IMG/VR virus record: IMGVR_UViG_3300009702_000021
Location: 19,008-83,007 of that record
DNA from: a virus
Reading direction: 5' to 3' (one strand)
Length of the DNA: 64,000 nucleotides
The stretch's first letter is position 1. Each line of letters starts with the position of its first letter. This document shows positions 2,256 through 34,424 of the stretch, in pieces. The notes below the pieces were generated by a model, which did not search any database, was not told where the DNA came from, and worked only from the letters and a program-made list of their open reading frames with translations. The position numbers were made by a program, and so were the translations under genes.

Positions 2256-4136
2256 ATGCCCCTGCCATCTGGCGGCGCATCACATGAACCAGCACTCGAT
2301 GCAGTTTCGGTTCCGCCAGCGGCTGGGCCGGCACAGGAGGTTGCACTCGATGCAGTTTCGGTTCCGCCAGCGGCTGGGCCCTCGCGTTCACTGTCCCTAT
2401 CTACAAGTGCAGGTGAGTCATCCGGTGCATCACAGGAGATGTCCGGTGACTTCCTTCCCCGCTCGTGGATAGGACCGGTCCAGGAGAAGCAGGGTAGCTT
2501 CCTCCCGGTACTGGCACCTACCAAGTTTTCGGGTCCAGCGCGTTCAGCCAAGATGGTCGCATCGCTGTTTCTCCCGCCAGGCGCAGGGCCGGCCCAGGAG
2601 TCACAGCTTGAAGCTGTAACTGGCCTCGCGCCCTTCGTAAACGATGTCGTAGTAGAGCAGCGTGATAGGGCCAATACTTTCCTGACCGACGTCTCCTTCC
2701 TTGCGGGTCAGGTGACGGGAGACAAGCTCTCGTTGGCAGTGGAGTGGCAGATCGGCGGTACGTCTGGGACATGGAATCCTGCGACTCCACAGACATTTGA
2801 TCGCAAGCATGATCCAGAGGACCCGGGTGGGATCATCCGTCGCGTGGATCGCCGTGGACTCGAGGGATACTGGCGCTTTGAGCAGGACTTCCTAGACACA
2901 GCGGAGTTCGCTCGCCCACTGACCGAGATCGGCACTGTTCCGTTCACTACAGGAGGCGTACAGGGAGACGCAGTCCAGTTCGCCAACAACTCAGCAAACT
3001 ACCTACAGCGCAACGTCGATGACCCCACCATGGCGTTCGCAGCTGATGATGACTTCACGCTGCGTGTCTGGGTCCGCTGGACCAGCATCGCGGGTTCCCA
3101 GACCATCATTGAGAAGTTCACTCCACCCTCTGGGCCGGGCTGGAGCCTGACCAAGCTCGTCGACTCTCGGATCCAGTTCCACTACGGTGGCCCACCGGGG
3201 CTTCTGATTGAGACCTCTGGCTCGCTCGCAGTCGCAGATGCAACTTGGCACCAGATCGTCGTGCGCCGCCGCACCAAGGTCCTCGAGGTGTTCTACGACG
3301 GGGCCAAGGCTGCGCTGGTCGTAGACCCTCCCGAGCCGATCACCCCGCTCGCTCCATCCACGAACTTCCTCACCCTGGGTCGTCGGTCGAACGGTACCCA
3401 GCCCCTGGATGCTGACGTGGATGAGGTTGCGATCTGGACGCGATCCCTCAGCAATGCAGAGGTAGTTCAGGACTATGCGGAGGGAGCCGGGCGAGTCCTC
3501 CCGGGCACCGAGACAGTTCCTCTCGGTCTTCCATTCAACTTCGTCTGGGACACGATCCGTGACCTACCGGAAGGAGAATTTGAGGACGTCTTCGTCAGGG
3601 TCAGCGTCTCCAACAACCCAACTACGTCGGTGATCGTTGGTCCGCTATCCATAGCTACGGTTGCTCTGACTTCCGAGGACGCCCTAGCACGGAACCTCCA
3701 GCGGCGCGCACTCGCTGATCGGGTCGATCAAGACTTCCTCGGATGTGGGCTCCTGATCCCGTTCTGCCGTGGCTCAAGGGATTTTGAGAATGCTTGTGGG
3801 GTTGAATTGGTCCGCTCATCTGTACGACAGATCCTCGGGACTCGTGCCGCGGTTGGTCAGTTCCCAGGTGACCTCCCGTGGCGCCCAGATTTCGGCAATA
3901 AGATATGGATCCTGAGGCACCGGAACAATGACAGGATCCTGCGTGAGGAGGCGGTAGCGTTCGTCCAGGAGGCCCTCCGGTTCGAGCCGCGGGTAGAGGT
4001 CACGGAGGTCGTCGCCTCCGTTAACCCTGAGGACCCGAACCGGCTTGACGTCACGGTCCGATACCGGATCATCAAGACGAACACCCTGGACAACAGGGTA
4101 TTCCTACCCGAGTTCGAGGAAGTGGTAACGATCTGA
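2256..4136 (+). CDS. Baseplate wedge gp25/GPW-like protein fused to a LamG (concanavalin A-like) domain
   Basis: LamG motifs (GYWRFE, FTLRVWV, TWHQIVV, VDEVAIWTRSLS); C-terminal gp25 motif (SVRQILGT..GDLPWRPDFG...ALRFEPRVEV). Confidence 0.8.
   Translation: MPLPSGGASHEPALDAVSVPPAAGPAQEVALDAVSVPPAAGPSRSLSLSTSAGESSGASQEMSGDFLPRSWIGPVQEKQGSFLPVLAPTKFSGPARSAKMVASLFLPPGAGPAQESQLEAVTGLAPFVNDVVVEQRDRANTFLTDVSFLAGQVTGDKLSLAVEWQIGGTSGTWNPATPQTFDRKHDPEDPGGIIRRVDRRGLEGYWRFEQDFLDTAEFARPLTEIGTVPFTTGGVQGDAVQFANNSANYLQRNVDDPTMAFAADDDFTLRVWVRWTSIAGSQTIIEKFTPPSGPGWSLTKLVDSRIQFHYGGPPGLLIETSGSLAVADATWHQIVVRRRTKVLEVFYDGAKAALVVDPPEPITPLAPSTNFLTLGRRSNGTQPLDADVDEVAIWTRSLSNAEVVQDYAEGAGRVLPGTETVPLGLPFNFVWDTIRDLPEGEFEDVFVRVSVSNNPTTSVIVGPLSIATVALTSEDALARNLQRRALADRVDQDFLGCGLLIPFCRGSRDFENACGVELVRSSVRQILGTRAAVGQFPGDLPWRPDFGNKIWILRHRNNDRILREEAVAFVQEALRFEPRVEVTEVVASVNPEDPNRLDVTVRYRIIKTNTLDNRVFLPEFEEVVTI
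2292..2380 (+). repeat. 38-bp direct repeat (period 51) in the N-terminus of the gp25 fusion
   Basis: gcactcgatgcagtttcggttccgccagcggctgggcc at 2292-2329 and 2343-2380 (ALDAVSVPPAAGP twice). Confidence 0.9.
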
Positions 4137-4336
4137 TGTCCAGCCAAGCAACGCCGCGAACTTCTAACTTCCTCGCCTGGCTCACGACTGAGCCGGATCA
4201 CCACGAGGTCCGGTCGGCGCCGGGGACCTACTGCCGAGACCATTCTCTGGGTGAAGTGCTCTACTGTGGAAAGTGCAAGAAGGCGTGGAGCCCGTGCTGT
4301 AGCGAGTCGCGCCCGTGTCCGCAGGAGGAACGCTAG
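4136..4336 (+). CDS. Small Cys-rich hypothetical protein
   Basis: Start overlaps the upstream stop; CxxH and CxxC motifs; fills the gap exactly between gp25 and baseplate J. Confidence 0.45.
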   Translation: MSSQATPRTSNFLAWLTTEPDHHEVRSAPGTYCRDHSLGEVLYCGKCKKAWSPCCSESRPCPQEER

Positions 4337-5878
4337 ATGGTCTCAACGATCACCAGCCAGGCGAGTGACTTCACGAGCCGGGACTTCGACTCATGGGTGA
4401 TCCAGCTACGCTCTAACGTCAACGCGGCATTTCCTGGCTGGACCGACTTCAATACATCTAACTTCGGCAACATCCTCCTCGAGATGTTCGCCCACACGCT
4501 TGATGTCCTGAGCTTCTACCAGGACCAGCAATACCTCGAGACCCGGATCATGTTTGCCCAACTGCGCCGGTCCATGATCGCCCTGGGTAAGAACGTGGGA
4601 TTCGAGCTGCCCGGAGCCGTCGCGGCCACCGCGGACCTCGAGTTCACCTTCGCTGACGGACTAACTCGGGCGACCGACCTGATCATTCCCCAGGGGACGG
4701 TCGTCAGGACCAACGACCTGACGGATAACGTCGAGTTCGACCTCCTGGCCCCAGCCACGATCACGGCTGGTCTGATCCAGGTCAGCAGCCAGAGCGCCGA
4801 ACAAGCCCGGGCCCAGGTCCAGGCGATCACTGCAGACGGTACGGCGGACCAGCGTGCTCAGTTGAACGCTACTCCCTACCTTGACCGGTCTGCCTCTGTC
4901 TTGTTCGGAATCACCGCCTGGACCGAGGTCGACGACTTCCTCTCGAGCGGTCCCGCCGATACCGTGTTCCGCGTGGCCGTGGACGAGAACGACCGTGCGG
5001 CCCTGATATTCGGTGACGGCATCAACGGGGCAATCCCGTCTGGCGGAGGCACGGTTGACTACAAGACCGGGGGAGGGAGCCAGGGAAACGTGGATGCCAA
5101 CACGATCGATACCTTCCGCGACGGTAGCGTCTTCACGACGATCGGTGGAGAGTCGGTCCAGCTGCTCGTGCGGAACCCTAGCGCGGCATCTGGCGGTGTA
5201 GACCGCATGTCCGTCGAGGAGGCCAGGGTGGCGATCCCTGCGAGCCTCAGGACTGTCGGGAACCGGTCCGTGACCCGCGACGACTTCGAGGACAACGCGA
5301 AGAAGGTCCGCGGCGTGGCCCGCGCGATGATGCTGACCTCGGACGACGACGCGACGATCCCGGAGAACACGGGGCGTCTCTACATCGTCCCGGTCGGCGG
5401 TGGTCTCCCGAGCGCAGCACTCAAGACTGAGGTCGCCGACTTCATCAACACCAGCTTCCCTCCAACGATCACGTTCACGTTCAGCGTCGAGGATCCTGTC
5501 CTTCTGATCATCTCGTTCGACGCCGTGACCCACCTCAACCCGGGCGTGACTGAGGTTGAGGCCCGGACGGCAGTAGAGGCATCCCTCGATGCCTTCTTCT
5601 CACTGCTGAACGCTGACGGGTCAGAGAACAGCCAGATTGACTTCGGATTCAAGATCCGCACCGAGCGGATGCCGGCTGGGTCCCTCACTGGTGAGATCCC
5701 GTTCTCGGACCTGTTCAACGCTGTCCGTGATGCTGCGTTGCCTGACGGCCGGCTCGCCTTCCGCAAGGTGGAAGAGGACACGTTCGTGCCAGCCAACGAC
5801 GTCGTCTTGCTTGATACCGAATTCCCCGTAGTTGGGAGCATATCACTCACCAATGGACAGACGAGCGCGCCTTACTAA
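4337..5878 (+). CDS. Baseplate wedge protein (baseplate J / gp6-like)
   Basis: DFTSRDFDS, WTDFN.SNFG..LLE, FGDGING, GG.DR.S.EE, R.VTRDDFE motifs typical of baseplate J. Confidence 0.9.
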   Translation: MVSTITSQASDFTSRDFDSWVIQLRSNVNAAFPGWTDFNTSNFGNILLEMFAHTLDVLSFYQDQQYLETRIMFAQLRRSMIALGKNVGFELPGAVAATADLEFTFADGLTRATDLIIPQGTVVRTNDLTDNVEFDLLAPATITAGLIQVSSQSAEQARAQVQAITADGTADQRAQLNATPYLDRSASVLFGITAWTEVDDFLSSGPADTVFRVAVDENDRAALIFGDGINGAIPSGGGTVDYKTGGGSQGNVDANTIDTFRDGSVFTTIGGESVQLLVRNPSAASGGVDRMSVEEARVAIPASLRTVGNRSVTRDDFEDNAKKVRGVARAMMLTSDDDATIPENTGRLYIVPVGGGLPSAALKTEVADFINTSFPPTITFTFSVEDPVLLIISFDAVTHLNPGVTEVEARTAVEASLDAFFSLLNADGSENSQIDFGFKIRTERMPAGSLTGEIPFSDLFNAVRDAALPDGRLAFRKVEEDTFVPANDVVLLDTEFPVVGSISLTNGQTSAPY

Positions 5879-15996: not shown

Positions 15997-18900
15997 ATGG
16001 GAAAGAAACGCACTTGGTTCCCACACTTCCACGTCCATGACGAGCACTCGATCAAGGACGGCTGCTCGACCGTCGAGACCTACGCCGACCTGGTAGTTGA
16101 GTCAGGCGGAGACTGCCTAGCGATCACGAATCACGGGCAGGCAGCCGGGTTCGCGCGCCAGTACTTCGCCTGCCGTGACCGAAAGATCAAGCCCGTCTTC
16201 GGCATGGAGGCCTACGTCAACGAGTGGAGGACTCGCCCGATCAAGAGGCTCCAGGAGGAGCTGAAGAAGGCCGAGAAGGCTGCCAAGAAGTCGCCAGCCA
16301 GGCTCTCACAGATCAAGGCCAAGCAGGAGTCCCTCAAGCGGTTCATTGCTGAGCGGTTCCGGCCAAGCCCACATGCGATCATCCTCGCTAAGAACCGGGT
16401 CGGCTACCAGAACCTCGTTCGCATGAGCACGGACAGCTACCAGCACGGCTTCTACTATGTGCCGCGGACCGACACCAAGTTCCTCTCCGAGCACCGCGAG
16501 GGGCTGATCTACAGCACAGCCTGCATCGGTGGCTACATCCCCAGGATGGCCCGGGTAGACTTCGCCGCTGCGTGCGAGGAGGCTCGTCGGCTCAAGGCGA
16601 TCTTCGAGGACGGCGGAGGTGGCTTCTACGTCGAGCTGATGATCACCGAGTACGAAGCACAGCGTGAGACCAACGAGGTCATGATCCGGCTCGCCACCGA
16701 GATCGGCGCCAAGTGCATCCTGACCTGCGACGTCCACTACGCGAAGCCCGACGACGGGCAGGCGCAGAACGTCCTCCTGCTGATGCGGGACAAGAAGACG
16801 ATAGCCGACCGGGAGGCCGGCGAGGGAGTCTGGCAGTTCGAGGCTAAGGACCTCTGGTGGAGGACGGTCCAGGACGTGGTCCAGTGCTGGAGGGAGAACC
16901 ACTCGGACTACATGGACCGGAGCTGTTTCCAGGCTGCCCTCAAGAACACCCTTGCCCTGGCAGACGAGATCGAGGACGTCGAGTTCGATACGAGCCTCAA
17001 GCTACCTGGGGTCTTCAAGGAGCCAGATCACGACCTCAAGGAGCTGGTCAAGTCGGGCTTGCGGTACCGCAAGGAGCACGGGCAGCTAGCGCCGGGAGTC
17101 AAGCTCTCGGAGTACACCGATCGGATCAAGCGTGAACTATCGGTCATCAGCCCCAAGGGGTTCAGCGAGTACTTCCTGATCCTGCACGACGTCTGCCGGG
17201 CAGCCCGGGAGATGGGAGCCCGCATGGGCCCGGGCCGCGGTAGTGCCGGCGGATCCCTGACGGCCTACCTCTGTCGGATAACCGAGATTGATCCGCTCAG
17301 GTTCGGACTCCTGTTCGAGCGGTTCCTCGATGCCGGCCGCGATGACCCACCGGACATTGACCTCGATTTCTCCCCGGAACACCGAGACGGCATCAAGGCC
17401 TATGTCGAGAAGGCCTACCCGGCAACTGCAACGATCGGGTCCAACGCTACATTCAAGCCGCGCGCCACGCTCCAGGACGTCGGCCGGGTCTTCGGGATCG
17501 ACTACCGGGAGATGCAGCAGATAACCAAGCCCCTGGGTACCGAAGCTGATGACATGACGTGGGATGAAATCTTCGAGGCCTGGCCGGCCGTTGAGAGGTT
17601 TGCTGACGACCACCCGGAGGCGTGGAGCGTCGTCCGGGTCCTCCGGGGGCTCATCAGCCACCGCGGCAAGAATGCTGCCGGGATGCTCATCGCTCCGGCC
17701 TCAGCCCTCAACGACGTCCCGATGATCATGGAGACGGACAGCAAGGGCAACAAGATGACCGTGACAGCATTTGCGGACAGCCAGGGAGACGGAGTCGAGC
17801 ACAAGGGGCGGGAGCTGACTCGACTCGGCTACCTAAAGGCCGACCTGCTCGGTGTCCGAAACCTGAACATCGCGCCGCAAGCAGTCGAGATCGTAGCGCG
17901 GGATACTGGGCAGGAGATCGACCTAGAGTCACTCTCCCTCGACGACGAGGAGACGCTCCAGACTGCGGCAACGGGAGACGTCCCAGGGGCCTTCCAGCTC
18001 GACACCAACACGACGCGACCGATCCTCCGTCACGTCGGGGTAGATAGCTTCGCTGACCTAGTCATGATTACTGCCCTCTGCCGACCAGGTCCCCTCAAGA
18101 ATCAGATTCATCGTGAGTTCGCCAAACTCAAGCGCAGCGATGCATGGGAGGACGATGTACTGCCAGAACTAAGGGAGCTGCTCCGGGACAGCCGCGGACT
18201 CATGGTCCTCCAGGAGGACGTCATGTGGGTCGTGCAGGTAGTCAGCGGCATGTCGATGCAGGAGGCCAACATGCTCCGAAAGATCATGTCGAAGAAGCAA
18301 CCTGAGGCGATGAAGCAGTGGAAGGAGAGGTTCGTTGAGGGAGGCAAGGAGGTAGGGCTCGCCACGGAAGAGGAGCTGGTCGAGCTGTGGGACAAGATCA
18401 AGACCTTTGCCGGCTACGGGTTCAATAAATGTGTATGTTATAATCAGCCCATCACCGTGAGGCGGACTTGCGGTACCGCAAAGGAGACTGATCGTGGGCA
18501 AGAGTACACCAACGAAGTGCGCGTGTGGGGCGGTGTTCCCGAAGAAGAAGTTGTGGGTGGACCACAAGAGGACGTGCAGTCCACACAAGGAGATAGTCAA
18601 ACAGGCCCGGCTGTCCAACCTCGCCAAGGCCAATGCACCGGATGCGAGGGAGAGGGCGCGAAAGACTTTCCTGATGAGGGATTACGAGGTAACCGAGGCC
18701 CAGAGAGATGCTCGAAGGAAGAATGCCCGCAAGCACCTCACGCCGTGGGCGCAGAGCGAGGATGGCAGGAGGGTGTCTTCCGAGACAGCCAAGAAAACGT
18801 CAGCGAGGAAGGATGTCAAGCAGGCGAGGGCGAAGCGCATGAAAGAGTGGGTGCGAAACAATCCAGGAGTGATCGCTCGGACAGGTCAGCGTGCAGCGGC

Positions 18901-20637
18901 ACTGGCCATCGACGGAGCAGGGGAGCTGGAGTTAGCAGAACTTCTTCACAATCTGAATGTAGTCAGACAGGAAGTGGTAGAGGTCGTACCGGGAAAGTTC
19001 GGCCTGTTCGATCTATCTCTTCCGAGCCGAAGCGTATTGATCGAGGTGGACGGCTCAGAGCACTTCAATCAGGGTGGACGGGAGATGATCGCCGACTACG
19101 CCAAGGAGGACTGGGTCAGGAGCAAGGAAAACGAGCAGGGGTGGGGATTGATCAGGGTACAACTCACCAACGACCGCAGGCTAGTCAGGGAAGTGAAGAT
19201 CGGACTCTTGCGAGCTATCAAGAAAATCAAACCGAGGGAGGTTCTATTCGTCGGGGATTGCTACGACAAGAGGAGGAGGCCCAAGAAGAGGAAACGATCC
19301 CGATCGGCGAAGTAGCCGTCGGTGACCTCGTCCTCGCACAGGATGGAGACTGGGTCCGAGTCCTCGACGTCCATGACCACGGTCTCCAAGAGTGCGTGGA
19401 GGTAGTGCTTCCGACCGGCTCCGTGGTCTGCACCTGGGATCACCGTTTTCCTACCCCACAGGGAACCCTGACGCTGCACAAAATCATCAATACCAAAACT
19501 CGGATCCTCACAAAGCAGCGCCTCGACACCATCTCAATTGACACCTGGCAGCTTCCGACCTCTGTCACTCCAGTTGGAGTTCGTCACACCGTTGATCTCG
19601 AGGTTGACCACCCGACTCACTGCTACTTCCTCGCCAACGGAGTCTGCACCCACAACAGCCACGCTACCGCCTACATGATCACTGCCTACCGTCAGCTCTA
19701 CATGCTGACCCACCACACGGTCGAGTACTTCGCTGCCCTGCTGACTCACACGCCGCGGGGTAAGAAGACTGCCGGCGGCGGGGAGCTGGTGGTCGACTAC
19801 ATGCGAGCCGCGATGTCCCGGCGGATCACCCTGCTGGGTCCATGTGTTGTAGACGGAGCTATCGGTTTCGACGTCGATAAGTACGGTCGGATTCGCTACG
19901 GCCTCGGGCACGTCAAGGGAGTCGGAGGCGCAGCCCAACTGGTAATGGCTGCGAGTCCGTTCGAGTCCCTCGAGGATATGTTCGACCGGATCGAACGACG
20001 CCGGGTCAACTCGCGCGTGTTCAAGCAGCTGATCTTCAGCGGCGCCCTGGACAAGCTCGACTTCAACCGACACGCCGGCAAGGGTGACCCGATCCCGGAG
20101 TGGATCGGAGTCGAGCGCAGAAATGGGATCCTAGCCCGCTATGAGCAGCTGAGGAAGGCGAAGGAGACACCAGATGTATTCTCGACATCGGTCCTCCGGG
20201 AGAAGGAACGTGAGGTGCTAGGACTCCCGCTGTCCTGGTGGTCCTCCGACACGGTCCAGGAACTGCGCGACCAGGAGGGGCTGGAGACGATCGACTATCA
20301 CCTCCGCAGTGACCTCAGCAAGCTAGAGATCATCGCCGAGGTCAGCAGAGCTAGGACGCACCGGACCAAGAAGGGGACGACGATGGCGTTCCTGACGCTG
20401 GCGGACGAGACCGGGACCCTGCCGAACGTCACGATCTGGCCCGAGCAGTGGTCAACATACAGGCGGATGCTCTCCCAGGGTCGGATGGCGATCATCCGCC
20501 TCCGGCGCAAGGAGAATCACAACCGCGAGTTCGGTGAGTGGTCCTACTACCTCGAGGACAAGTGGAGCGAGCCCGTCGAGAGCGTGGCCCGCGCACTACG
20601 GCGTGATACCGAAGGCGTGGAATCGGATGACGAATAG
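15997..20637 (+). CDS. dnaE: DNA polymerase III alpha subunit containing an intein
   Basis: PHP domain (HFHVH..SIKDG), GRGSAGGSL, PDIDLDF, GFNK|SHATAY, C-terminal OB fold. Confidence 0.95.
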   Translation: MGKKRTWFPHFHVHDEHSIKDGCSTVETYADLVVESGGDCLAITNHGQAAGFARQYFACRDRKIKPVFGMEAYVNEWRTRPIKRLQEELKKAEKAAKKSPARLSQIKAKQESLKRFIAERFRPSPHAIILAKNRVGYQNLVRMSTDSYQHGFYYVPRTDTKFLSEHREGLIYSTACIGGYIPRMARVDFAAACEEARRLKAIFEDGGGGFYVELMITEYEAQRETNEVMIRLATEIGAKCILTCDVHYAKPDDGQAQNVLLLMRDKKTIADREAGEGVWQFEAKDLWWRTVQDVVQCWRENHSDYMDRSCFQAALKNTLALADEIEDVEFDTSLKLPGVFKEPDHDLKELVKSGLRYRKEHGQLAPGVKLSEYTDRIKRELSVISPKGFSEYFLILHDVCRAAREMGARMGPGRGSAGGSLTAYLCRITEIDPLRFGLLFERFLDAGRDDPPDIDLDFSPEHRDGIKAYVEKAYPATATIGSNATFKPRATLQDVGRVFGIDYREMQQITKPLGTEADDMTWDEIFEAWPAVERFADDHPEAWSVVRVLRGLISHRGKNAAGMLIAPASALNDVPMIMETDSKGNKMTVTAFADSQGDGVEHKGRELTRLGYLKADLLGVRNLNIAPQAVEIVARDTGQEIDLESLSLDDEETLQTAATGDVPGAFQLDTNTTRPILRHVGVDSFADLVMITALCRPGPLKNQIHREFAKLKRSDAWEDDVLPELRELLRDSRGLMVLQEDVMWVVQVVSGMSMQEANMLRKIMSKKQPEAMKQWKERFVEGGKEVGLATEEELVELWDKIKTFAGYGFNKCVCYNQPITVRRTCGTAKETDRGQEYTNEVRVWGGVPEEEVVGGPQEDVQSTQGDSQTGPAVQPRQGQCTGCEGEGAKDFPDEGLRGNRGPERCSKEECPQAPHAVGAERGWQEGVFRDSQENVSEEGCQAGEGEAHERVGAKQSRSDRSDRSACSGTGHRRSRGAGVSRTSSQSECSQTGSGRGRTGKVRPVRSISSEPKRIDRGGRLRALQSGWTGDDRRLRQGGLGQEQGKRAGVGIDQGTTHQRPQASQGSEDRTLASYQENQTEGGSIRRGLLRQEEEAQEEETIPIGEVAVGDLVLAQDGDWVRVLDVHDHGLQECVEVVLPTGSVVCTWDHRFPTPQGTLTLHKIINTKTRILTKQRLDTISIDTWQLPTSVTPVGVRHTVDLEVDHPTHCYFLANGVCTHNSHATAYMITAYRQLYMLTHHTVEYFAALLTHTPRGKKTAGGGELVVDYMRAAMSRRITLLGPCVVDGAIGFDVDKYGRIRYGLGHVKGVGGAAQLVMAASPFESLEDMFDRIERRRVNSRVFKQLIFSGALDKLDFNRHAGKGDPIPEWIGVERRNGILARYEQLRKAKETPDVFSTSVLREKEREVLGLPLSWWSSDTVQELRDQEGLETIDYHLRSDLSKLEIIAEVSRARTHRTKKGTTMAFLTLADETGTLPNVTIWPEQWSTYRRMLSQGRMAIIRLRRKENHNREFGEWSYYLEDKWSEPVESVARALRRDTEGVESDDE
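18436..18444 (+). promoter_or_regulatory. Extended -10 promoter (TGnTATAAT) inside the DnaE intein
   Basis: TGTTATAAT, consensus extended -10 in a GC-rich genome, about 50 nt before the nested ORF start. Confidence 0.6.
18494..19315 (+). CDS. Nested +1-frame Vsr/DUF559-like homing endonuclease with N-terminal zinc finger
   Basis: AAGGAG RBS at 18481; CxC..HxxxC; FDL...LIEVDGSEH...D..K..W...GW..IRV. Confidence 0.8.
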   Translation: MGKSTPTKCACGAVFPKKKLWVDHKRTCSPHKEIVKQARLSNLAKANAPDARERARKTFLMRDYEVTEAQRDARRKNARKHLTPWAQSEDGRRVSSETAKKTSARKDVKQARAKRMKEWVRNNPGVIARTGQRAAALAIDGAGELELAELLHNLNVVRQEVVEVVPGKFGLFDLSLPSRSVLIEVDGSEHFNQGGREMIADYAKEDWVRSKENEQGWGLIRVQLTNDRRLVREVKIGLLRAIKKIKPREVLFVGDCYDKRRRPKKRKRSRSAK

Positions 20638-26606: not shown

Positions 26607-27119
26607 GTGATGAGCAAGCAGAAGACCCGCTACAAGATCCTGACCACCATCCACAAGGCAGGGACGATCGGTGGCATGACCGCAGCGCGGATCGCCCACC
26701 TCGCCAAGGTCCACCCGGCTACGGCCCGACGGCACCTCGCGGAGATGCGCCGGGACCCGACGTCGCTCTACGCCGAGTACCTCATCTCGGCCGGGAGCGA
26801 GCGCGGCTACCGTTACCTGGTCGACGGCTGGCCGCCCAAGCCGGCCCGCAAGCAGAAGGCCCCGCGTCGCCGTCGTAGCTCGCCCGTGCGGGTCGCCAAG
26901 CCCATCGATGTCCTCCAGGTCCAGGTGACCGCTCCCGAGCCCGTGACGGTCCGCGTACGTGTCCTGACGGCCCTCCGGGGTAGGGACCTGGGCCTCCACG
27001 AGCTGGGCCAGGCCCTCCGGGTCAAGCGCAACGTCCTCCAGCGCGAGCTGGACGCCCTGGCGGGCCAGGTGACCCGGACGCGTGAGAACAACCGCTGGAT
27101 CTACACCCGGGCTAGCTAG
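26607..27119 (+). CDS. Putative HTH DNA-binding protein (two winged-HTH-like segments)
   Basis: MTAARIAHLAKVHPATARRHL and LGLHELGQALRVKRNVLQREL. Confidence 0.6.
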   Translation: MMSKQKTRYKILTTIHKAGTIGGMTAARIAHLAKVHPATARRHLAEMRRDPTSLYAEYLISAGSERGYRYLVDGWPPKPARKQKAPRRRRSSPVRVAKPIDVLQVQVTAPEPVTVRVRVLTALRGRDLGLHELGQALRVKRNVLQRELDALAGQVTRTRENNRWIYTRAS

Positions 27120-27159
27120 GCCTTGCGGTACCGCAAACCCCCCAACCCCTGAGGAGACG

Positions 27160-27738
27160 ATGATGAGCATGACCGTGAAACAGATCAATGCACGAGTGGA
27201 CCAGTTCTGCGACAGCATCGAGACCCGGCTCCGAGAGCTTCGCCGGGACCACCCGCGGGCGCAGTTCCGCTATCGGATCAGTCCCCGTTGGGGATGCGGG
27301 TCTCCGGCCGAGTTTGGTTCGCTCCTCCTGAGCGCGGTCCTCGACGAGGTCCGCAACTACTGCTACGCCCTCGAGGGAGCCTACGGCCCGGAGCAGCAGC
27401 GGGAGGCGGAGTCCGACCGGGCTCGATCCGGGATCGCCGTGGTGTTCTGGGATGCCCGCTGCCACTGGGAGTGCCACGACCTCCTGACCGGGGAGTCGTT
27501 CCGCCAGCCCTACTCGGGCAGGAAGCGGTGCAAGCACACGCGCCACCCAGATGGCTGGATCAACAAGGCTGTCCACGACATCGGGAGCAGCTACGACCTC
27601 GAGCTGCCGCGCGAGGAGCGGGCCAAGCTGATGCAGGTCCTCGAGCGGCTCCGGGACGAGCTGACCGGCAAGGGGCCGGTCGAGCTGACTCGGATCGGCC
27701 AGCCGGCCTTCACCTACGATGACCAGGTTATCTGGTAA
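27160..27738 (+). CDS. Hypothetical protein
   Basis: GAGGAG RBS directly after a palindrome copy. Confidence 0.55.
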   Translation: MMSMTVKQINARVDQFCDSIETRLRELRRDHPRAQFRYRISPRWGCGSPAEFGSLLLSAVLDEVRNYCYALEGAYGPEQQREAESDRARSGIAVVFWDARCHWECHDLLTGESFRQPYSGRKRCKHTRHPDGWINKAVHDIGSSYDLELPREERAKLMQVLERLRDELTGKGPVELTRIGQPAFTYDDQVIW

Positions 27739-27748
27739 GGAGCGAGCG

Positions 27749-28135
27749 ATGACACAGACCATGACTCTCGTGATGGACACGCAGAACGTCGAGGTCGTCG
27801 GCGTGTTCCAGACGCCCCTGGCGGCCCTGTCTTACCTGCGCCGCCGAGACCAGGTCGACTACGAGGTCGTCGCGCGTGAGGATGGAGCCCCGCACGCGAT
27901 CCGCGGCAAGGGGGTCTTCTACGACCTCATTGCGGTGGAGGTCCACCCGGAGACCGACGAGACCCTCCGGTTGTACGCCATCCACCTCCTGAAGCAGTTG
28001 CACAACATCAGGGCGATGAACGCCGTGAACCTCAGGGGCCTCCCGCGGGACGAGCTGCGCTCCCTGACATTCGTCCTACAGGGGATCGTCTCCAACTTCG
28101 CGGACGCCCAGCGACGGGCCAACCGCCCCTGGTAG
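27749..28135 (+). CDS. Hypothetical protein
   Basis: AAGGAG RBS. Confidence 0.55.
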   Translation: MTQTMTLVMDTQNVEVVGVFQTPLAALSYLRRRDQVDYEVVAREDGAPHAIRGKGVFYDLIAVEVHPETDETLRLYAIHLLKQLHNIRAMNAVNLRGLPRDELRSLTFVLQGIVSNFADAQRRANRPW

Positions 28136-28160
28136 GGCCCGGCCACACCTCGGATTAAGG

Positions 28161-28207
28161 ATAAAACTAGAATGGGACTAGACAGCGGCTAGGGGTGCCG
28201 GTAGTTT
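28161..28207 (+). promoter_or_regulatory. Sigma70-like promoter, copy 2 of the conserved element
   Basis: ATAAAACTAGAAT..GACTAGACAGCGGCTAGG; TAGACA-N17-TAGTTT. Confidence 0.65.
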
Positions 28208-28228
28208 GTAGGAAGAACGGAGACGCAG

Positions 28229-29179
28229 ATGAGCACGACACTCCCCAATACCGTCCGCATCCAGTCGACCAAGGGCGACGTCGATGCTCCGGTGACATCG
28301 CTCGGTAGCACGGACGTCCACCAGCACAAGGGCGGCAACTACGCCCATGACATCAGCGAGGCCAACAAGGACTGCTGGCATGGCTGGTATCGCGAGGCTG
28401 TCAAGCCTCACCTCCTGAGCTGGTCGTTCCCCCGGGAGGTCCAGGCCATCAAGGATCGGGCTGAGCAGGTCCTCGAGGAGGGGATCCCGAGTCAGAAGCG
28501 GACGATGCTCCGCAACCAGGTCTATGGACAGCTCGACCAGCGGTGGATCAGCCAGATCGCCATCGGCCAGGACATCGAGCGTCCCTTCCAGCGCTGGTCG
28601 AAGGCCAAGCGCGACACGATCAGCGTCGCCATCTGCCTCGACACCACGGTCGCCTCTGGGCTCAGTAACGAGATGCTCAAGGCCAGGATGTGCCTCGCGG
28701 CCGGCCTCGGCGGCGCGCTCGAATTCCTGGACTATGACGTGGCGATCATCGGCGCCCACCTTCAGGTCAGCATGGAGCGCGCTGGATTCATGACCCGACC
28801 GCGTCAGGCCCCGGATAAGGCGGAGGTCCAGGCGATCACCTGTAAGGACTGGAACGAGCCGTTCACTGACTCCGGCCTGGCCCACATGGCCGATACTGGC
28901 CTCCACCGCCTGTCCTGCGCATGGGGGCTCAAGTCGGACGGCTATACCACGCAGCTGACCGACCGTGAGTGGCGGGAGTTGACTGACGCAGACCTCCTGG
29001 TGGTCGTCGGTCCACACAAGGGTAGCCGGAACGTCCTCAACTATGAGGGGTTGCCTAAGGGCGCGACCCTGCTCCCGACCGGTGACGACACCATTTACCT
29101 GCCCTGCGACAAGATCACAGACCTCGACCCGGCGGTCGACGTCCTCGAGCAGTTCTTCAACGCCCATTTCGGGAAGTAG
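28229..29179 (+). CDS. VWA-like (CobT-type) partner of the MoxR ATPase
   Basis: G.LD.RWI..., VAICLDTTVAS degenerate MIDAS, ALEFLDYDVAI. Confidence 0.55.
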   Translation: MSTTLPNTVRIQSTKGDVDAPVTSLGSTDVHQHKGGNYAHDISEANKDCWHGWYREAVKPHLLSWSFPREVQAIKDRAEQVLEEGIPSQKRTMLRNQVYGQLDQRWISQIAIGQDIERPFQRWSKAKRDTISVAICLDTTVASGLSNEMLKARMCLAAGLGGALEFLDYDVAIIGAHLQVSMERAGFMTRPRQAPDKAEVQAITCKDWNEPFTDSGLAHMADTGLHRLSCAWGLKSDGYTTQLTDREWRELTDADLLVVVGPHKGSRNVLNYEGLPKGATLLPTGDDTIYLPCDKITDLDPAVDVLEQFFNAHFGK

Positions 29180-29183
29180 GACG

Positions 29184-29378
29184 ATGGCAAATACGAACAG
29201 TAAGAACGATGAGCTGAACGATGAGCTGACCCGGGGACGCCCACAGCAGATCGGCTTCCAGACCGCTGGCAAGATCGAGCAGCGGCTCATGGTCCCCATG
29301 ATAGACGAGATGGGGTCGTGGGTCTCGTGGGCCCTCCCGACTGAGCGCGAGCGCGCTGCGCATGAGGGCCGGCGATGA
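29184..29378 (+). CDS. Hypothetical protein
   Basis: Short ORF directly after the VWA-like gene. Confidence 0.4.
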   Translation: MANTNSKNDELNDELTRGRPQQIGFQTAGKIEQRLMVPMIDEMGSWVSWALPTERERAAHEGRR

Positions 29379-30152: not shown

Positions 30153-30313
30153 CGCTCCCGACTCGTGCGTATCTAGAGGCGGCAGGGGAGCCCCAGCACG
30201 AGGCCGGAACCCAAGCTTGGAGACCAAGACCTAGGAGACAGATTCAGGTCCGTGGTGGGCCGGAGAATGAATGACAGAGGGATGTGCTGGCCGACCCCAG
30301 CGTGGAGACACCC

Positions 30314-33300
30314 ATGAGCAAGAGCAGGTTGACCCCGGTCCTGAAGGGCCTCAACCCCATAGAGAAGTCGAGAGTTGAGACCTGGGTGCCCACGGACCGG
30401 GAGGGCCTGGTCGTTCGGGTCAGGGATCCCGGACCCGGTGAGGGGATCCCGGTCACCCTGATCGAGGACCTGACTGAGGTAGAGGTCCACGACGAGACAT
30501 CCGGTGCGTGGATCCGGGGCCGCGCCGCAGCACAGACTACCCCTGGCTGGCCCGTCACGCTGATCAAGGCCGTCGAGAGGATCCGCGCCGAGGCCGAGCG
30601 AGCCATGGTCTGCCCGGAGTGCGACAGCTACCTGATCCTCCGGGACCGGGACCTAGAGTGCGCGGAGTGCGGACTGTGCATGAACCCCGACTGCCCGAAC
30701 TGCGGAGGCCGGACGGCCTTGCGGTACCGCAAGCTCAAGGGCCAGCCAGCCGACATCCCTCCGGCATTCTGGGCGTGCCGGGATGATGCCTGCGCCTCTG
30801 CGCTCCTGTGGGGCCAGCGAGACCCTCAACCACAGCAGGTCCCGGATAAGCCGTGGACGGAGCACGGGGAGAGGGAGGAGCAGATCGCGGAGGCGCGTGA
30901 GGTCCTAGATCACCCGCTGGTCTCGGAAGCCAATGCGGTCAAGAAGCTGCGAGTGATCCTCGACGAGAACCCCGACCGGGTCCTGCCACTGGTCCTCGGG
31001 GAGACCACGCCCTCAGGCAAGAAGACGGTCCAAGCCAGGCTCGAGGAAAAGCTGGCTGAGGAGCGCCGGCAGGGCAAGCCACGACGCCGGGTCAAGAGGC
31101 GTGCCCAGAAGGCACGCCGGGTCCAGCCCGGGGAGAAGCGTGAGGGTATCAAGTACTACGGCCCCGAGGACTCATTGCCTGGTCCGTCCGGGACGTCCCT
31201 GGTCGAGGTCCCTGAGGACGATGAGACCTCCGTGGCGTCGTCTGTCTACCCACACCACCGGCTAGCTCATGCAGCGCTGAACCCGATCCAGTCGCGCGTC
31301 CTCGATGTCTATGACCGGAACTGCAACGTGGTGATCGCCGCCAGCACCAGTGCTGGTAAGACCCTCAGCGCTGAGATGGTCATGGGTGACGCCCTCGACC
31401 GCGGCGCCAAAGCGATCTTCCTCGCGCCGCTCCGGGCCGTCAGCCAGGAGAAGTACGACGACTGGTGCGATGAGGACCACCCGTGGTCAGAACTAGGGGT
31501 CGAAATCTGCACGGGTGACTACACGATGAGCCAGGCGAAGCGGAAGGCCCTGCGCCGCGCCGACGTGATCGTGATGACATCTGAGATGCTCGACTCCAAG
31601 ACGCGTCGGATGGGGAGCGACGAGAACGGCTGGCTGATGGAGACACTCTGCGTGGTCGGCTCCTCCGGGATTGCACTTGCGGACGGGACTACGAAGACAA
31701 TCAAGGAGATCGTGGAGGAGCGTCTCGAGATTGAGGTCTTAGCTTTCAATCACTCGATTGGGAAAGTCGTCAAGCGCAGGGTGACGGGATGGCACAAGAA
31801 CCGGTTAGGAGACAGGAATCTCGTTGAGATCACTTGCGGTACCGCAAGTCTGACCTGCACCGAAGATCATGAGATATACCAGCGAGGCGTGGGGTATACT
31901 GCTGCCAGGAAGCTCACATCTTCGAGCACGCTGGAGGTGCTGGATGCCGGTCAAGAAGGGACACAGATTCGGCGCGAAGCGCACGGTCGAGCTGACGGAC
32001 ATAGAGCGATCGGTTGTCATAGGGACACTGCTCGGAGACAGCTCACTATCGTGGGGAACAGGGAACCGGGTAAGTGCCAGAATGCGTGTGAGGAACAGCC
32101 TCGCACAGCGGGAGTTCGTGTTGTGGAAGTACGAGATGCTTCGGCGTCTTGTGCGGACTCCTCCGAAGGAGGCGCCGAATCGTGGATACAAGCGCGACGG
32201 AATGGCATTCGGATTTTCCACGAGGTCCTTCGGAGAGGACCTACTCAAGATCAAACAATTGATCGAACCCGGGAAGACGGTGACGCGCGATCTGCTGGAC
32301 TTGTTGACGGAGCCAGAGGGACTGGCCGCGTGGTACATGGACGACGGATCGAGGTCGAGGGGGGCGAGTCTCGTACTACATACACAGTCAATGACTGCCG
32401 ACGAGGTGCGGTTGACGTCGCGTTGGCTCAGGGAGGAGTGGAATATCGAGACCAGGCCGATGTCGGTCAAGAACAGAGCCTACGAGGTGCTACGTATTCC
32501 GGCGGAATCAGGCGAGCGGTTTATGGATATCGTGAGACCATTCGTGACCGGGATAACATGCATGGAGCACAAGGTATTGCACAGGAGAGAGTCGCTGTTC
32601 TGCACGATGTGCGGCACAGGGTTCGAGGCAACGAGGCGTCAGATCCAGCGCGAGACGAGACTTGTCACCTGCCGGTCCGAGGACTGCATGAGGGCCCTAG
32701 CCCGTATGATTCAGAGACTGAACGACGCGAGGATCGGTTCGTCTACGACCTAACCGTCGAGGGTGAGCACAACTACTTCGCCGAGGGAGTCCTGGTCCAC
32801 AACTGCGTGGTCGTTGACGAGGCTCACCTGCTAACGATGAAGGACCGCGGCGACGCCTTGGAGTGCGGACTCGAGCGATTCACTCGGTTCAACCCCCACG
32901 CTAGGATCGTCCTCCTCAGCGCGACCATGCCGAACGTCCATGAGCTAGGGTCCTGGCTGACCCGCCTGAACGGGAAGCCGACCCGCCTTGTCCAGAGCGC
33001 GTGGCGTCCCACCAAGCTGACCGTTCACCCCGTGCCGTACGACCACCAGACGTCGGGTTACAGCTACCACAAGAACGAGGACTCCAAGCGGGCTAAGGCG
33101 ATCGAGCTGCTCCAGAAGTACAGCGAGGACAAGTGGATCGTCTTCGTCCACACGAAGAAGATGGGCCACGCCCTGCTGGCCCAGCTACGGGACCGGCACG
33201 AGCCAGCCGAATTCCATAGCGCTGACCTCACCCGAGACAACAGGCTCCGGCTCGAGGACCGGTTCAGGCACGGAGACCTCAGGGTCGTCGTAGCCACTTC

Positions 33301-34384
33301 GACCCTGGCCTACGGCATCAACATGCCGGCGCGACGGGTCATGGTCGTCGGAATCCACCGCGGCCTGGAGAAGGTCGCACCGCTAGACGTACTCCAGATG
33401 TTCGGGCGGGCCGGGCGAGTGGGCCTCGACCCTGAAGGCGATGCCTACCTACTGGTCCCGGAGACCCGTGATCCACGCGAGTTCGACCGGACCGTCGAGG
33501 CCTACTCGAAGCCAGGTCTGATCGAGAGCCAGCTGAACGAACTGCACACGCTGGCCTTCCACTTGACGGCGGAGGTAGCCGAGGGGTCAGTGAGGACGAC
33601 CGCGGATGCAGTTGCCTGGCACGCCCGTTCGCTCGCGGCACAGCAGGGCCGGGGTCTTGACCAGGAAGGGAAGGTGCTCAGCGCCTCCCGGGTAATGCAT
33701 GACCTCTGCCAGTGCGGCGTCCTCAAGGAGGAGGACGGGAGCTATGAGGCGACACAGCTCGGTCACGTCGCGAGCCGACTCTACTACAGTCCGTTCGACG
33801 TAGCTGACTGGGCGTCCAACTTCCGCTGGGCCGCGGAGCGGGATAAGCACCACAACGATGACGTGGTCGCGTGGGCGCTCGGGAACGTCCGGTCGGCCTA
33901 TTCCAAGAGCTACTTGCCGAAGGAACACGCTGGTGACATGGGAGACCTCGAGTGGCGCCTAGGACAGGTCGGAGTGGACCGGGCCTCCAACCTCCCGCCC
34001 GCTTGCCTGGCTTTCCGTGGGATGATCGAGGGGACCAAGTACAGGGCGATGTCGTCCTATCAGCGCCAGCTAGAGTACGACGCCGACAGGATCATGCAGG
34101 CGATCACCATGATCGACGCTCGGGTGCTCAAGTCGCTCGGGAAGACCTACTGTGACGGCCTGGGTATGCGACTTCGCTACGGGTGCTCCTGGGAGGAGGC
34201 CGACCTGTGTCACATCCCCGGGGTAGGCTCCCGCCGCGCACGGCAACTGGCTGCCGCGGGAGTCAGTGGGGTAATGGACGTCCTGGAGAATCGCAAGAAG
34301 GTGGTCGACGCACTCGGGAGCAAGATCGCGCAGAGCGTGATCCGCGGGGCTAAGGAGGTTGCCAGGAAGCGTGGAGCGCGTTGA
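30314..34384 (+). CDS. Ski2/Hel308-like DEAD/H helicase with N-terminal Zn ribbons and an intein
   Basis: STSAGKT, APLRA, DEAH, LSAT, ATSTLAYGINMPA, QMFGRAGR, C-terminal HhH (IPGVG). Confidence 0.9.
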   Translation: MSKSRLTPVLKGLNPIEKSRVETWVPTDREGLVVRVRDPGPGEGIPVTLIEDLTEVEVHDETSGAWIRGRAAAQTTPGWPVTLIKAVERIRAEAERAMVCPECDSYLILRDRDLECAECGLCMNPDCPNCGGRTALRYRKLKGQPADIPPAFWACRDDACASALLWGQRDPQPQQVPDKPWTEHGEREEQIAEAREVLDHPLVSEANAVKKLRVILDENPDRVLPLVLGETTPSGKKTVQARLEEKLAEERRQGKPRRRVKRRAQKARRVQPGEKREGIKYYGPEDSLPGPSGTSLVEVPEDDETSVASSVYPHHRLAHAALNPIQSRVLDVYDRNCNVVIAASTSAGKTLSAEMVMGDALDRGAKAIFLAPLRAVSQEKYDDWCDEDHPWSELGVEICTGDYTMSQAKRKALRRADVIVMTSEMLDSKTRRMGSDENGWLMETLCVVGSSGIALADGTTKTIKEIVEERLEIEVLAFNHSIGKVVKRRVTGWHKNRLGDRNLVEITCGTASLTCTEDHEIYQRGVGYTAARKLTSSSTLEVLDAGQEGTQIRREAHGRADGHRAIGCHRDTARRQLTIVGNREPGKCQNACEEQPRTAGVRVVEVRDASASCADSSEGGAESWIQARRNGIRIFHEVLRRGPTQDQTIDRTREDGDARSAGLVDGARGTGRVVHGRRIEVEGGESRTTYTVNDCRRGAVDVALAQGGVEYRDQADVGQEQSLRGATYSGGIRRAVYGYRETIRDRDNMHGAQGIAQERVAVLHDVRHRVRGNEASDPARDETCHLPVRGLHEGPSPYDSETERREDRFVYDLTVEGEHNYFAEGVLVHNCVVVDEAHLLTMKDRGDALECGLERFTRFNPHARIVLLSATMPNVHELGSWLTRLNGKPTRLVQSAWRPTKLTVHPVPYDHQTSGYSYHKNEDSKRAKAIELLQKYSEDKWIVFVHTKKMGHALLAQLRDRHEPAEFHSADLTRDNRLRLEDRFRHGDLRVVVATSTLAYGINMPARRVMVVGIHRGLEKVAPLDVLQMFGRAGRVGLDPEGDAYLLVPETRDPREFDRTVEAYSKPGLIESQLNELHTLAFHLTAEVAEGSVRTTADAVAWHARSLAAQQGRGLDQEGKVLSASRVMHDLCQCGVLKEEDGSYEATQLGHVASRLYYSPFDVADWASNFRWAAERDKHHNDDVVAWALGNVRSAYSKSYLPKEHAGDMGDLEWRLGQVGVDRASNLPPACLAFRGMIEGTKYRAMSSYQRQLEYDADRIMQAITMIDARVLKSLGKTYCDGLGMRLRYGCSWEEADLCHIPGVGSRRARQLAAAGVSGVMDVLENRKKVVDALGSKIAQSVIRGAKEVARKRGAR
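31649..32803 (+). mobile_element. Intein in the Ski2-like helicase (Cys1...His-Asn, +1 Cys) with a nested out-of-frame endonuclease gene
   Basis: CVVGSSGI.LADG, CTEDH, VYDLTVEGEHNYFAEGVLVHN; inserted just before Walker B. Confidence 0.9.
31944..32753 (+). CDS. Nested +1-frame LAGLIDADG homing endonuclease
   Basis: GGAGG RBS at 31933; VIGTLLGDSS and LAAWYMDDGS motifs; C-terminal CxxC..CxxxxC. Confidence 0.85.
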   Translation: MPVKKGHRFGAKRTVELTDIERSVVIGTLLGDSSLSWGTGNRVSARMRVRNSLAQREFVLWKYEMLRRLVRTPPKEAPNRGYKRDGMAFGFSTRSFGEDLLKIKQLIEPGKTVTRDLLDLLTEPEGLAAWYMDDGSRSRGASLVLHTQSMTADEVRLTSRWLREEWNIETRPMSVKNRAYEVLRIPAESGERFMDIVRPFVTGITCMEHKVLHRRESLFCTMCGTGFEATRRQIQRETRLVTCRSEDCMRALARMIQRLNDARIGSSTT

Positions 34385-34395
34385 GGATTTTAGGG

Positions 34396-34424
34396 TAGAC
34401 AGCCGGCTATATACCGGCTATACT
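34396..34424 (+). promoter_or_regulatory. Sigma70-like promoter
   Basis: TAGACA-N17-TATACT; shares the TAGACAGC start with the promoters at 25051 and 28179. Confidence 0.6.

Follow-up and report, generated by a model that had tools for sequence, protein, structure and literature searches.

The 64,000-nucleotide stretch of DNA analysed here (the window; about 62% GC) is part of the 83-kb IMG/VR virus record IMGVR_UViG_3300009702_000021, which has an estimated completeness of 45%. It contains a gene for a Ski2/Hel308-like helicase that is interrupted by an intein, and within the intein-coding DNA a gene for a LAGLIDADG homing endonuclease lies on the same strand in a different reading frame. 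The helicase gene extends on the plus strand from a predicted start codon at position 30284 to 34384 (30284..34384) as a single open reading frame (ORF) of 1366 codons, and its 1366-aa product matched the Pfam families DEAD (E = 7e-22), Helicase_C (3.9e-14) and Intein_splicing (1.2e-09, covering helicase aa 463–840) as well as PHROG 6819, 'Holliday junction branch migration helicase' (1.5e-52). A search of GenBank phages for near-identical helicase DNA gave no match.

The intein (31649..32803, plus strand, 385 aa) has all the sequence features of class 1 and is situated directly before the VVVDEAH (Walker B/DEAH) motif of the helicase, with ...NGWLMETL upstream and CVVVDEAHLL... downstream. 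It begins with Cys1 (CVVGSS...), contains a TxxH block B (TEDH, T71-E-D-H74, at 31859–31870) and ends in ...VLVHN, closed by H384-N385, and according to the reading of the junction the first residue of the C-extein (CVVVDEAH) is Cys (32804..32806, plus strand). T71 and N385 were invariant across 16 aligned inteins. Homologous helicases from loci L002–L005 (38–44% identical) lack the intein and are contiguous across the site, reading ...DVGTVVFDESHLL..., such that the window combines an interrupted conserved motif with the existence of empty homologues.

An AlphaFold2 (AF2) model of the helicase-frame intein, built with a 16-sequence alignment, was confident at aa 1–100 and 361–385 only. The first of these segments (31649..31948, plus strand) is the N-terminal splicing (HINT) part, with predicted local distance difference test (pLDDT) values of 81–97 and E = 1.8e-27 to a hidden Markov model (HMM) of related inteins; the second (32729..32803, plus strand) is the C-terminal splicing part with blocks F and G, DRFVYDLTVEGEHNYFAEGVLVHN (pLDDT 87–94; HMM E = 3.5e-16), and is 86% identical over 21 aa to the corresponding part of the L010/L011 intein. 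Comparison of the ordered part with the splicing domain of Mtu RecA (VIA-align) gave Z = 19.5 and a root mean square deviation (rmsd) of 2.2 with 136 residues aligned, and the NpuDnaB and NrdJ-1 inteins gave Z = 18.9 each. The model and its matches to mini-inteins agree on a HINT fold, and the helicase frame encodes a complete two-part HINT splicing domain (intein aa 1–100 and 361–385) that is predicted to splice.

The nested nuclease gene (31944..32753, plus strand) encodes a 269-aa I-SceI-like protein one base ahead of the helicase frame (+1) and terminates with TAA at 32751–32753, inside block F of the C-terminal splicing part. Its ATG is preceded by a GGAGG ribosome-binding site (31933..31937, plus strand) with a spacer of six bases, and GGAG-type motifs also precede the nested ATG in several relatives (e.g. 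L021, L031, L036, L075 and L079). Across 31649–32803 the helicase frame is crossed by no stop codon and the +2 frame by 21, and the +1 frame has stops at 31740, 31782, 31806, 31851 and 32751 only, being open from 31869 to the TAA. The LAGLIDADG motifs can be read in the +1 frame alone: the first, GTLLGD (G27–D32; 32022..32039, plus strand), has G27, G31 and D32 invariant among 24 aligned homologues, and in the second, WYMDDG (W130–G135; 32331..32348, plus strand), D133 and G135 are invariant and W130, M132 and D134 are retained in at least 90% of the same homologues, so that the acidic catalytic residues of both motifs (D32 and D133) are invariant. The bases encoding WYMDDG read VHGRR in the helicase frame, and VHGRR or VHGRW recurs in the host frames of relatives. 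A C-terminal zinc ribbon, CxxC...CxxxxC (C220, C223, C243 and C248; 32601..32687, plus strand), was recognised in the alignment, and its cysteine pattern is present in most aligned nested nucleases as well as in P0006 and L008.

The +1 ORF matched Pfam LAGLIDADG_2 (PF03161) over profile positions 1–168 of 168 (E = 3.2e-27; 96 bits, cut-off 25; 97.5 bits when the record's own genome was searched with PF03161), the PHROG 'homing endonuclease with LAGLIDADG motif' and, among sequences in the PDB, I-SceI/I-WcaI (E about 7e-7). An AF2 model of the nuclease built with a 24-sequence alignment had a pLDDT of 91.2 and a predicted template modelling (pTM) score of 0.84, and Foldseek matched it to I-WcaI (2.3e-13) and I-SceI (7.5e-13) with target-normalised template modelling (TM) scores of 0.75–0.76 and rmsd values of 2.6–2.7 over 206–212 columns. 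The modelled protein has the monomeric two-domain alpha-beta-beta-alpha-beta-beta-alpha fold.

In the helicase frame the same DNA reads as a stop-free linker of about 260 aa (31949..32728, plus strand) between the two splicing parts; it is rich in R, G, A, E and D, has pLDDT values below 50 at aa 101–109 and 111–360, and matched no Pfam family at E up to 1. When the synonymous codons of the nuclease ORF were permuted, with protein and codon usage held constant, the helicase frame was still open in only 6 of 20,000 shuffles (mean 6.9 stops), and none of 676 control windows of 265 codons, drawn from the corresponding frame of 27 long ORFs within the window, was open (about 4–15 stops per 265 codons). 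From the shuffles and the control windows we conclude that the helicase frame over the nuclease gene is held open by selection. A second assembler (Logan) returned 1601 bases of 31400–33000 that were identical with zero indels at a word depth of 15, in contigs of the sole public run containing the stretch, which is possibly the source sample and does not provide independent DNA. An antisense ORF in the same region (31805–32470) matched no Pfam family at E up to 1 and was viewed as a by-product of GC-rich coding DNA.

Relatives of the nuclease were sought by an alignment-based scan of IMG/VR, in which 482 loci were confirmed and the best 80 analysed; a query of IMG/VR with the single nuclease protein had found no close relatives. 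These viral loci were classed by their open frames and by HMMs of the N- and C-terminal splicing parts. A nuclease nested in an ORF of 926–1250 codons that carries both intein halves in one frame was found at 18 of the 80 loci (14 distinct sequences, from 17 IMG/VR datasets), and 11 loci are canonical, with the nuclease in frame with both halves. Halves and nuclease occupy differing frames or ORFs, in a split-intein-like manner, at three loci (L043, L087, and L041, the last being equal to L008/L014), and the remaining 48 showed no intein signature. Because the HMMs were built from the 14 nested inteins (L036, with an unclear N-terminal junction, was not in the seed), their matches to nested loci are by construction; matches to the in-frame, split and cyanobacterial loci are independent of the seed. 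In 18 of 18 nested loci the nuclease leads its host frame by a single base, as in the window, and in many of them the nested stop codon falls inside intein block F. Their hosts are homologues of the window helicase (L018–L021; C-extein identity 36–37%), a Helicase_C_2 helicase (L031) and terminase large subunits, of which L022 and L075 were recognised by Pfam and the others by sequence appearance only.

The shuffle test was extended with 3000 synonymous shuffles per locus, copies being omitted (L019 of L018, L029 of L028, L051 of L048 and L080 of L079). The host frame was open in 0 of 3000 shuffles at each of the 14 distinct loci, with 8.8–27.5 stops expected; with the window included there was likewise no open shuffle, the expected number of stops being 8.2–27.5 over a GC range of 34 to 62%. 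The first-pass annotation had held that the two-frame arrangement was no error, and the shuffles, the control windows, the second assembly and the same layout in 14 other distinct loci bear this out: the dual coding of intein and nuclease is genuine and not an assembly error. All of the sequence elements it had described, i.e. an open intein frame, LAGLIDADG motifs in the +1 frame (31944–32753) with their own GGAGG, a TATACT hexamer at 31895 and a palindrome copy, are present.

Comparison of the two readings of the same DNA between pairs of loci gave identities of 70% in the nuclease frame vs 37% in the host frame for L018–L020, 69% vs 45% for L023–L024, 50% vs 22% for L075–L079, and 42% vs 27% for the window and L018. 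At the family level, these alignments indicate that the nuclease frame is the conserved one and that the host-frame reading is poorly conserved. Homologous inteins with in-frame versions, a search for which had been proposed as a check, do exist: inteins carrying the same nuclease family in frame occur in RecA, RecD-like and Rad3-like hosts, besides the 11 canonical loci among the 80.

A quick tree of the nucleases (72 of 81 rows after collapsing nine duplicates) grouped the window with nucleases nested in homologous helicases, with a Shimodaira-Hasegawa-like approximate likelihood ratio test (SH-aLRT) support of 90, and with L027 (95); nested and in-frame forms were interleaved and poorly resolved. 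L027 (1628–3160) is the closest relative of the nuclease that lacks an intein signature and carries a fused N-terminal extension of about 290 aa without a Pfam match. A single origin of the nested state was considered and dropped: the quick tree needs at least four label changes and its starred branches force only two, and the state may have arisen once or several times. The nuclease is closest to those of L018–L021, yet the better BLAST matches of the window splicing domain are L031, L006 and L010. An exchange of nucleases between inteins was dropped as well: the splicing-domain tree is unresolved, and an approximately unbiased (AU) test allows the window to group with L018/L020/L021 (p 0.716), the tree so constrained having scored higher. 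We also observed that related nested-nuclease inteins occupy two insertion points, five residues apart, in one DEAH-box region of homologous helicases, namely G^T/C-VV-DE and DE^C/S-H. At L006 (3001–3507) a terminase carries a mini-intein of 169 aa with no nuclease, which groups with the nested terminase inteins L022–L024 (support 98); it has either lost its nuclease or represents the type of mini-intein that nuclease genes invaded.

A scan of cellular genomes for relatives of the nuclease, with one genome per species, confirmed 572 loci, and among the best 80 of these (L098–L177, mostly from Patescibacteria/candidate phyla radiation genomes) 78 were not intein-nested. The two nested cases, L163 and L170, are both cyanobacterial; their nucleases are 27–29% identical to that of the window and lead the host frame by two bases, and Pfam identifies the L163 host as DnaX. 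L166, in which the second frame is open for only 179 codons and gave no intein match, was excluded from the nested count. A further case was seen in the cultured Xanthomonas phage FoX3 (MT161383; locus L178), where gp40 (record positions 26902–29268), a 'putative DNA helicase', contains an unannotated intein (WDE^C...VHN^CHH) with a likewise unannotated LAGLIDADG ORF nested two bases ahead of the host frame; this case from a cultured phage also speaks against an assembly artefact. Both offsets thus occur in this nuclease family, and the phage clade that includes the window uses +1.

In the window the splicing halves thus flank a nuclease ORF that shares their strand but not their frame, and the host ORF is uninterrupted. 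This is most probably a non-canonical mobile intein in which splicing domain and homing endonuclease are two separate, overlapping genes, with both splicing and homing predicted. By analogy with well-studied inteins and LAGLIDADG enzymes, the two HINT halves would be joined by the linker of some 260 residues, which would need only to be free of stop codons, and ribosomes would initiate internally on the helicase messenger RNA, at the GGAGG and ATG of the nuclease gene, to make the nuclease as a separate protein. The precursor would splice out the intein, linker included, thereby restoring the DEAH helicase, and the nuclease would cut intein-less helicase alleles of co-infecting relatives, so that recombinational repair would copy the whole element in.

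Some observations weigh against this interpretation. With an unfolded linker of about 260 aa, splicing might be slow or defective. The closest relatives of the nuclease are 41–45% identical, and conservation is accordingly shown at the family level only. The window intein is inserted at ETL^CVVVDEAH, five residues upstream of the point used in L018/L020/L021 (VVDE^(C/S)H, about 2212), and because the insertion points differ the target of the nuclease cannot be read from its closest relatives. A second in-frame ATG upstream, at 31869, also opens the nuclease frame, for which reason the start, 31869 or 31944, is not certain; no GGAG-type motif lies within 18 bases upstream of ATG 31869. The second assembly derives from contigs of a run that may be the source sample, and the sequencing runs listed for this stretch included no RNA run.

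One alternative, which we regard as unlikely, is that the element is decaying: an endonuclease once in frame would now be a dead ORF in a mini-intein that still splices and is inherited vertically with no homing. The interleaving of in-frame and nested forms in the nuclease tree and the grouping of the mini-intein L006 with the nested L022–L024 are compatible with such a history, as is the failure of the searches to find a close relative of the window copy that would attest recent homing. It is opposed by the state of the ORF, which is complete, with invariant catalytic residues and a confidently modelled fold, and by the relatives, in which the nuclease frame rather than the host frame is conserved and start and stop are found at equivalent places; moreover, a dead ORF of 269 codons would not remain open alongside an open host frame.

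The palindrome upstream of the nested gene bears on another alternative. This 16-bp element, CTTGCGGTACCGCAAG (31833..31848), lies within the N-terminal splicing part, where it encodes TCGTAS, and is one of 23 copies (with up to two mismatches) in the 64 kb, including those at 2222, 8663, 18467, 27122, 37663, 38551, 45534, 48555/48572 and 62960; none was expected from shuffled sequence. For ten of the 23 copies, a start codon equipped with a ribosome-binding site and opening an ORF of at least 60 aa follows within 30 nt, compared with 10% of random positions, which links the palindrome to gene starts; the remaining copies sit inside long genes. The element looks like a gene-start signal, be it an operator, a processing hairpin or a promoter element. 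A copy also precedes the nested ORF of a second intein in the genome, in DnaE (18430–19656), where a +1 ORF (18494–19315) begins with a GTG that lies 12 nt after the palindrome and is preceded by an AAGGAG motif. The product of this ORF has an IEVDG...GW..R nuclease core like that of DUF559/Vsr proteins (pairwise E = 3e-4 to the nested ORF of L010) and no similarity to the LAGLIDADG protein when the two were compared. L010/L011 (2953–4275) itself has the same layout with another nuclease family: an intein after the DEAH motif of a giant methylase-helicase ORF overlaps a +1 ORF of 360 aa with zinc fingers and a DUF559 match (E = 1.1e-13).

The claim of the first-pass annotation that two unrelated nuclease families share one layout in this genome is therefore upheld by the DUF559/Vsr-like character of the DnaE ORF. 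Its description of the strategy as convergent is unsuited to the helicase intein, because there the layout is inherited within a lineage, with 18 of 18 nested loci sharing the +1 offset and the window grouping with the nucleases of homologous helicases, and has been published before. Nor was its suggestion of regulation through the palindrome or an internal promoter supported for this gene: the palindrome is 96 nt from ATG 31944, as against 12 nt in the DnaE intein, and is an element found genome-wide, and the TATACT (31895–31900) has no TAGACA partner, the only one of the two plus-strand copies of the hexamer in the window to have one being that at 34419. An internal promoter was accordingly rejected, there being no sigma-70-like site on the plus strand of 31400–33000.

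The alternative in question is that the nuclease has been repurposed, for example for cutting the genomes of competitor phages or as a DNA-binding regulator, with its expression tied to the palindrome. The presence of a palindrome copy upstream of the nested ORF in both inteins of the genome, the link of the palindrome to gene starts and the distance of only 21 nt to the alternative ATG 31869 would fit this idea, which we nevertheless judge quite improbable, given that the well-supported start at 31944 is far from the palindrome, ATG 31869 lacks a GGAG-type motif, no promoter was recognised and the layout persists in relatives that have no such palindrome at their nuclease starts.

Paired frameshift errors, i.e. 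compensating artefactual indels near 31940 and 32750 in what would be an in-frame nuclease domain, are very improbable. In-frame inteins with this nuclease family do exist, and the window is a metagenome assembly for which there is one run only, possibly the source. However, a non-coding helicase frame should carry about seven stops and has none, and since this frame is selected to be open, an in-frame nuclease with two artefactual indels makes no sense. The only homopolymer of at least five bases in the intein (at 32359) is away from both junctions, the second assembler introduced no indel, 14 other distinct loci share the +1 layout, and the nuclease ORF has its own ribosome-binding site and ATG and stops exactly at block F. 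Equally hard to credit is programmed ribosomal frameshifting, +1 near 31940 and back near 32750, to give a canonical one-chain intein: the nuclease ORF does lie exactly where canonical inteins have their endonuclease domain, between the two halves of the splicing domain, but two efficient and opposite shifts would be needed, no usable slippery heptamer exists at either junction (no XXXYYYZ in 31850–32000 and one in 32650–32810, GGGCCCT at 32692, in the wrong phase for the nuclease frame), and both the selection for an open host frame over about 265 codons and the gene's own ribosome-binding site and ATG would be left unexplained.

The layout itself is already known; the window contributes a new host gene, a new insertion point and the +1 offset. 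A recent preprint describes a cyanobacterial dnaX intein whose LAGLIDADG gene occupies an overlapping '+2ORF' and whose in-frame middle is predicted to be disordered, and it reports Shine-Dalgarno motifs as well as selection that depends on the frame (bioRxiv 10.64898/2026.09.14.751524; Phillips, DeSimone, Gogarten), where the first report of the out-of-frame dnaX endonuclease is credited to Gorbalenya 1998. On that description the dnaX intein and the window have in common the stretch predicted to be disordered in the intein frame and the Shine-Dalgarno motif before the nested start; selection on the nuclease frame, described for dnaX, is probable for the window, as judged from conservation at the family level. 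They differ in offset, the dnaX nuclease being two bases out of step and that of the window one, and in host, a cellular clamp-loader subunit as opposed to a phage helicase; a zinc-ribbon tail is present in most of the phage nested nucleases aligned here.

Non-canonical inteins of actinobacteriophages, for which the authors propose in the accessible part of their preprint that a free-standing nuclease gene invaded a mini-intein (bioRxiv 10.1101/2025.01.02.630785; Gosselin, Arsenault, Gogarten), share with the window a phage intein, a nuclease outside the intein frame and a middle with no recognisable fold. The nucleases described there are endonuclease VII-like in 'frame 3', antisense LAGLIDADG and antisense VSR-like, in hosts comprising DNA polymerase, minor capsid, terminase and thymidylate synthase, whereas the window has a same-strand, out-of-frame LAGLIDADG gene in a Ski2-like helicase. 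Our literature search found no paper on a phage helicase intein that harbours a LAGLIDADG gene at +1 on the same strand, although the supplements of both preprints, which fell outside the search, may list some.

Canonical LAGLIDADG_2 inteins have a nuclease of the same family (PF03161) in the same place between the halves as the window, but they form one polypeptide with both activities; the window has two polypeptides in two frames. I-SceI and I-WcaI come from group I introns within the rRNA genes of organelles. The window nuclease resembles them in fold and two-motif architecture and differs in its additional C-terminal zinc ribbon and its location inside an intein.

A bolder proposal, possible though in our view doubtful, is that the +1 pair of mini-intein and I-SceI-like zinc-ribbon nuclease is no transient intermediate but a single composite mobile element, old and stable, which has passed between phage genes of at least three kinds. 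If so, its hosts would be Ski2-like helicases (at two points), a DinG/Rad3-like helicase and several terminase large subunits, the offset would have been kept while the nuclease diverged to about 25–30% identity, and dual coding would be a preferred state in which the level and timing of the nuclease are independent of the host protein; both nested nuclease genes might then use the phage's own palindrome-linked start signals.

The window intein is a clean and statistically secured case of overlapping genes of a type that escapes gene callers and annotators, as in FoX3 gp40, annotated simply as a helicase. With 18 of the best 80 viral loci sharing one offset, the layout is not uncommon in phage inteins that carry nucleases of this family, and the phage clade to which the window intein belongs is large enough to merit a dedicated survey. 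The loci are informative about the origin of intein endonucleases, which may be gained when a mini-intein is invaded or when a fused domain is shifted out of frame, and they offer natural examples of a splicing domain with an unfolded linker of about 260 residues, tolerance of which is predicted.

A separate nuclease gene between N- and C-terminal splicing halves in a phage-type gene is also a feature of fractured genes, in which, as described in the part of the source considered, the two halves of a split intein flank a free-standing gene for a homing endonuclease (Dassa et al. 2009, PMC2677866). Unlike these, the window host is unsplit, one uninterrupted ORF running through the nuclease gene; it is the split-intein-like viral loci that resemble them. 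In the terminase of L008/L014/L041 (L008 about 2527–5186), the stop of an ORF for N-extein and N-intein overlaps the start of the next ORF (ATGA), and the second ORF encodes a LAGLIDADG_2 nuclease fused in frame to C-intein and C-extein, an arrangement that represents either a split intein or a single frameshift. L043 and L087 have their two intein parts and the nuclease distributed over different frames or ORFs, and may be fractured genes or decaying elements.

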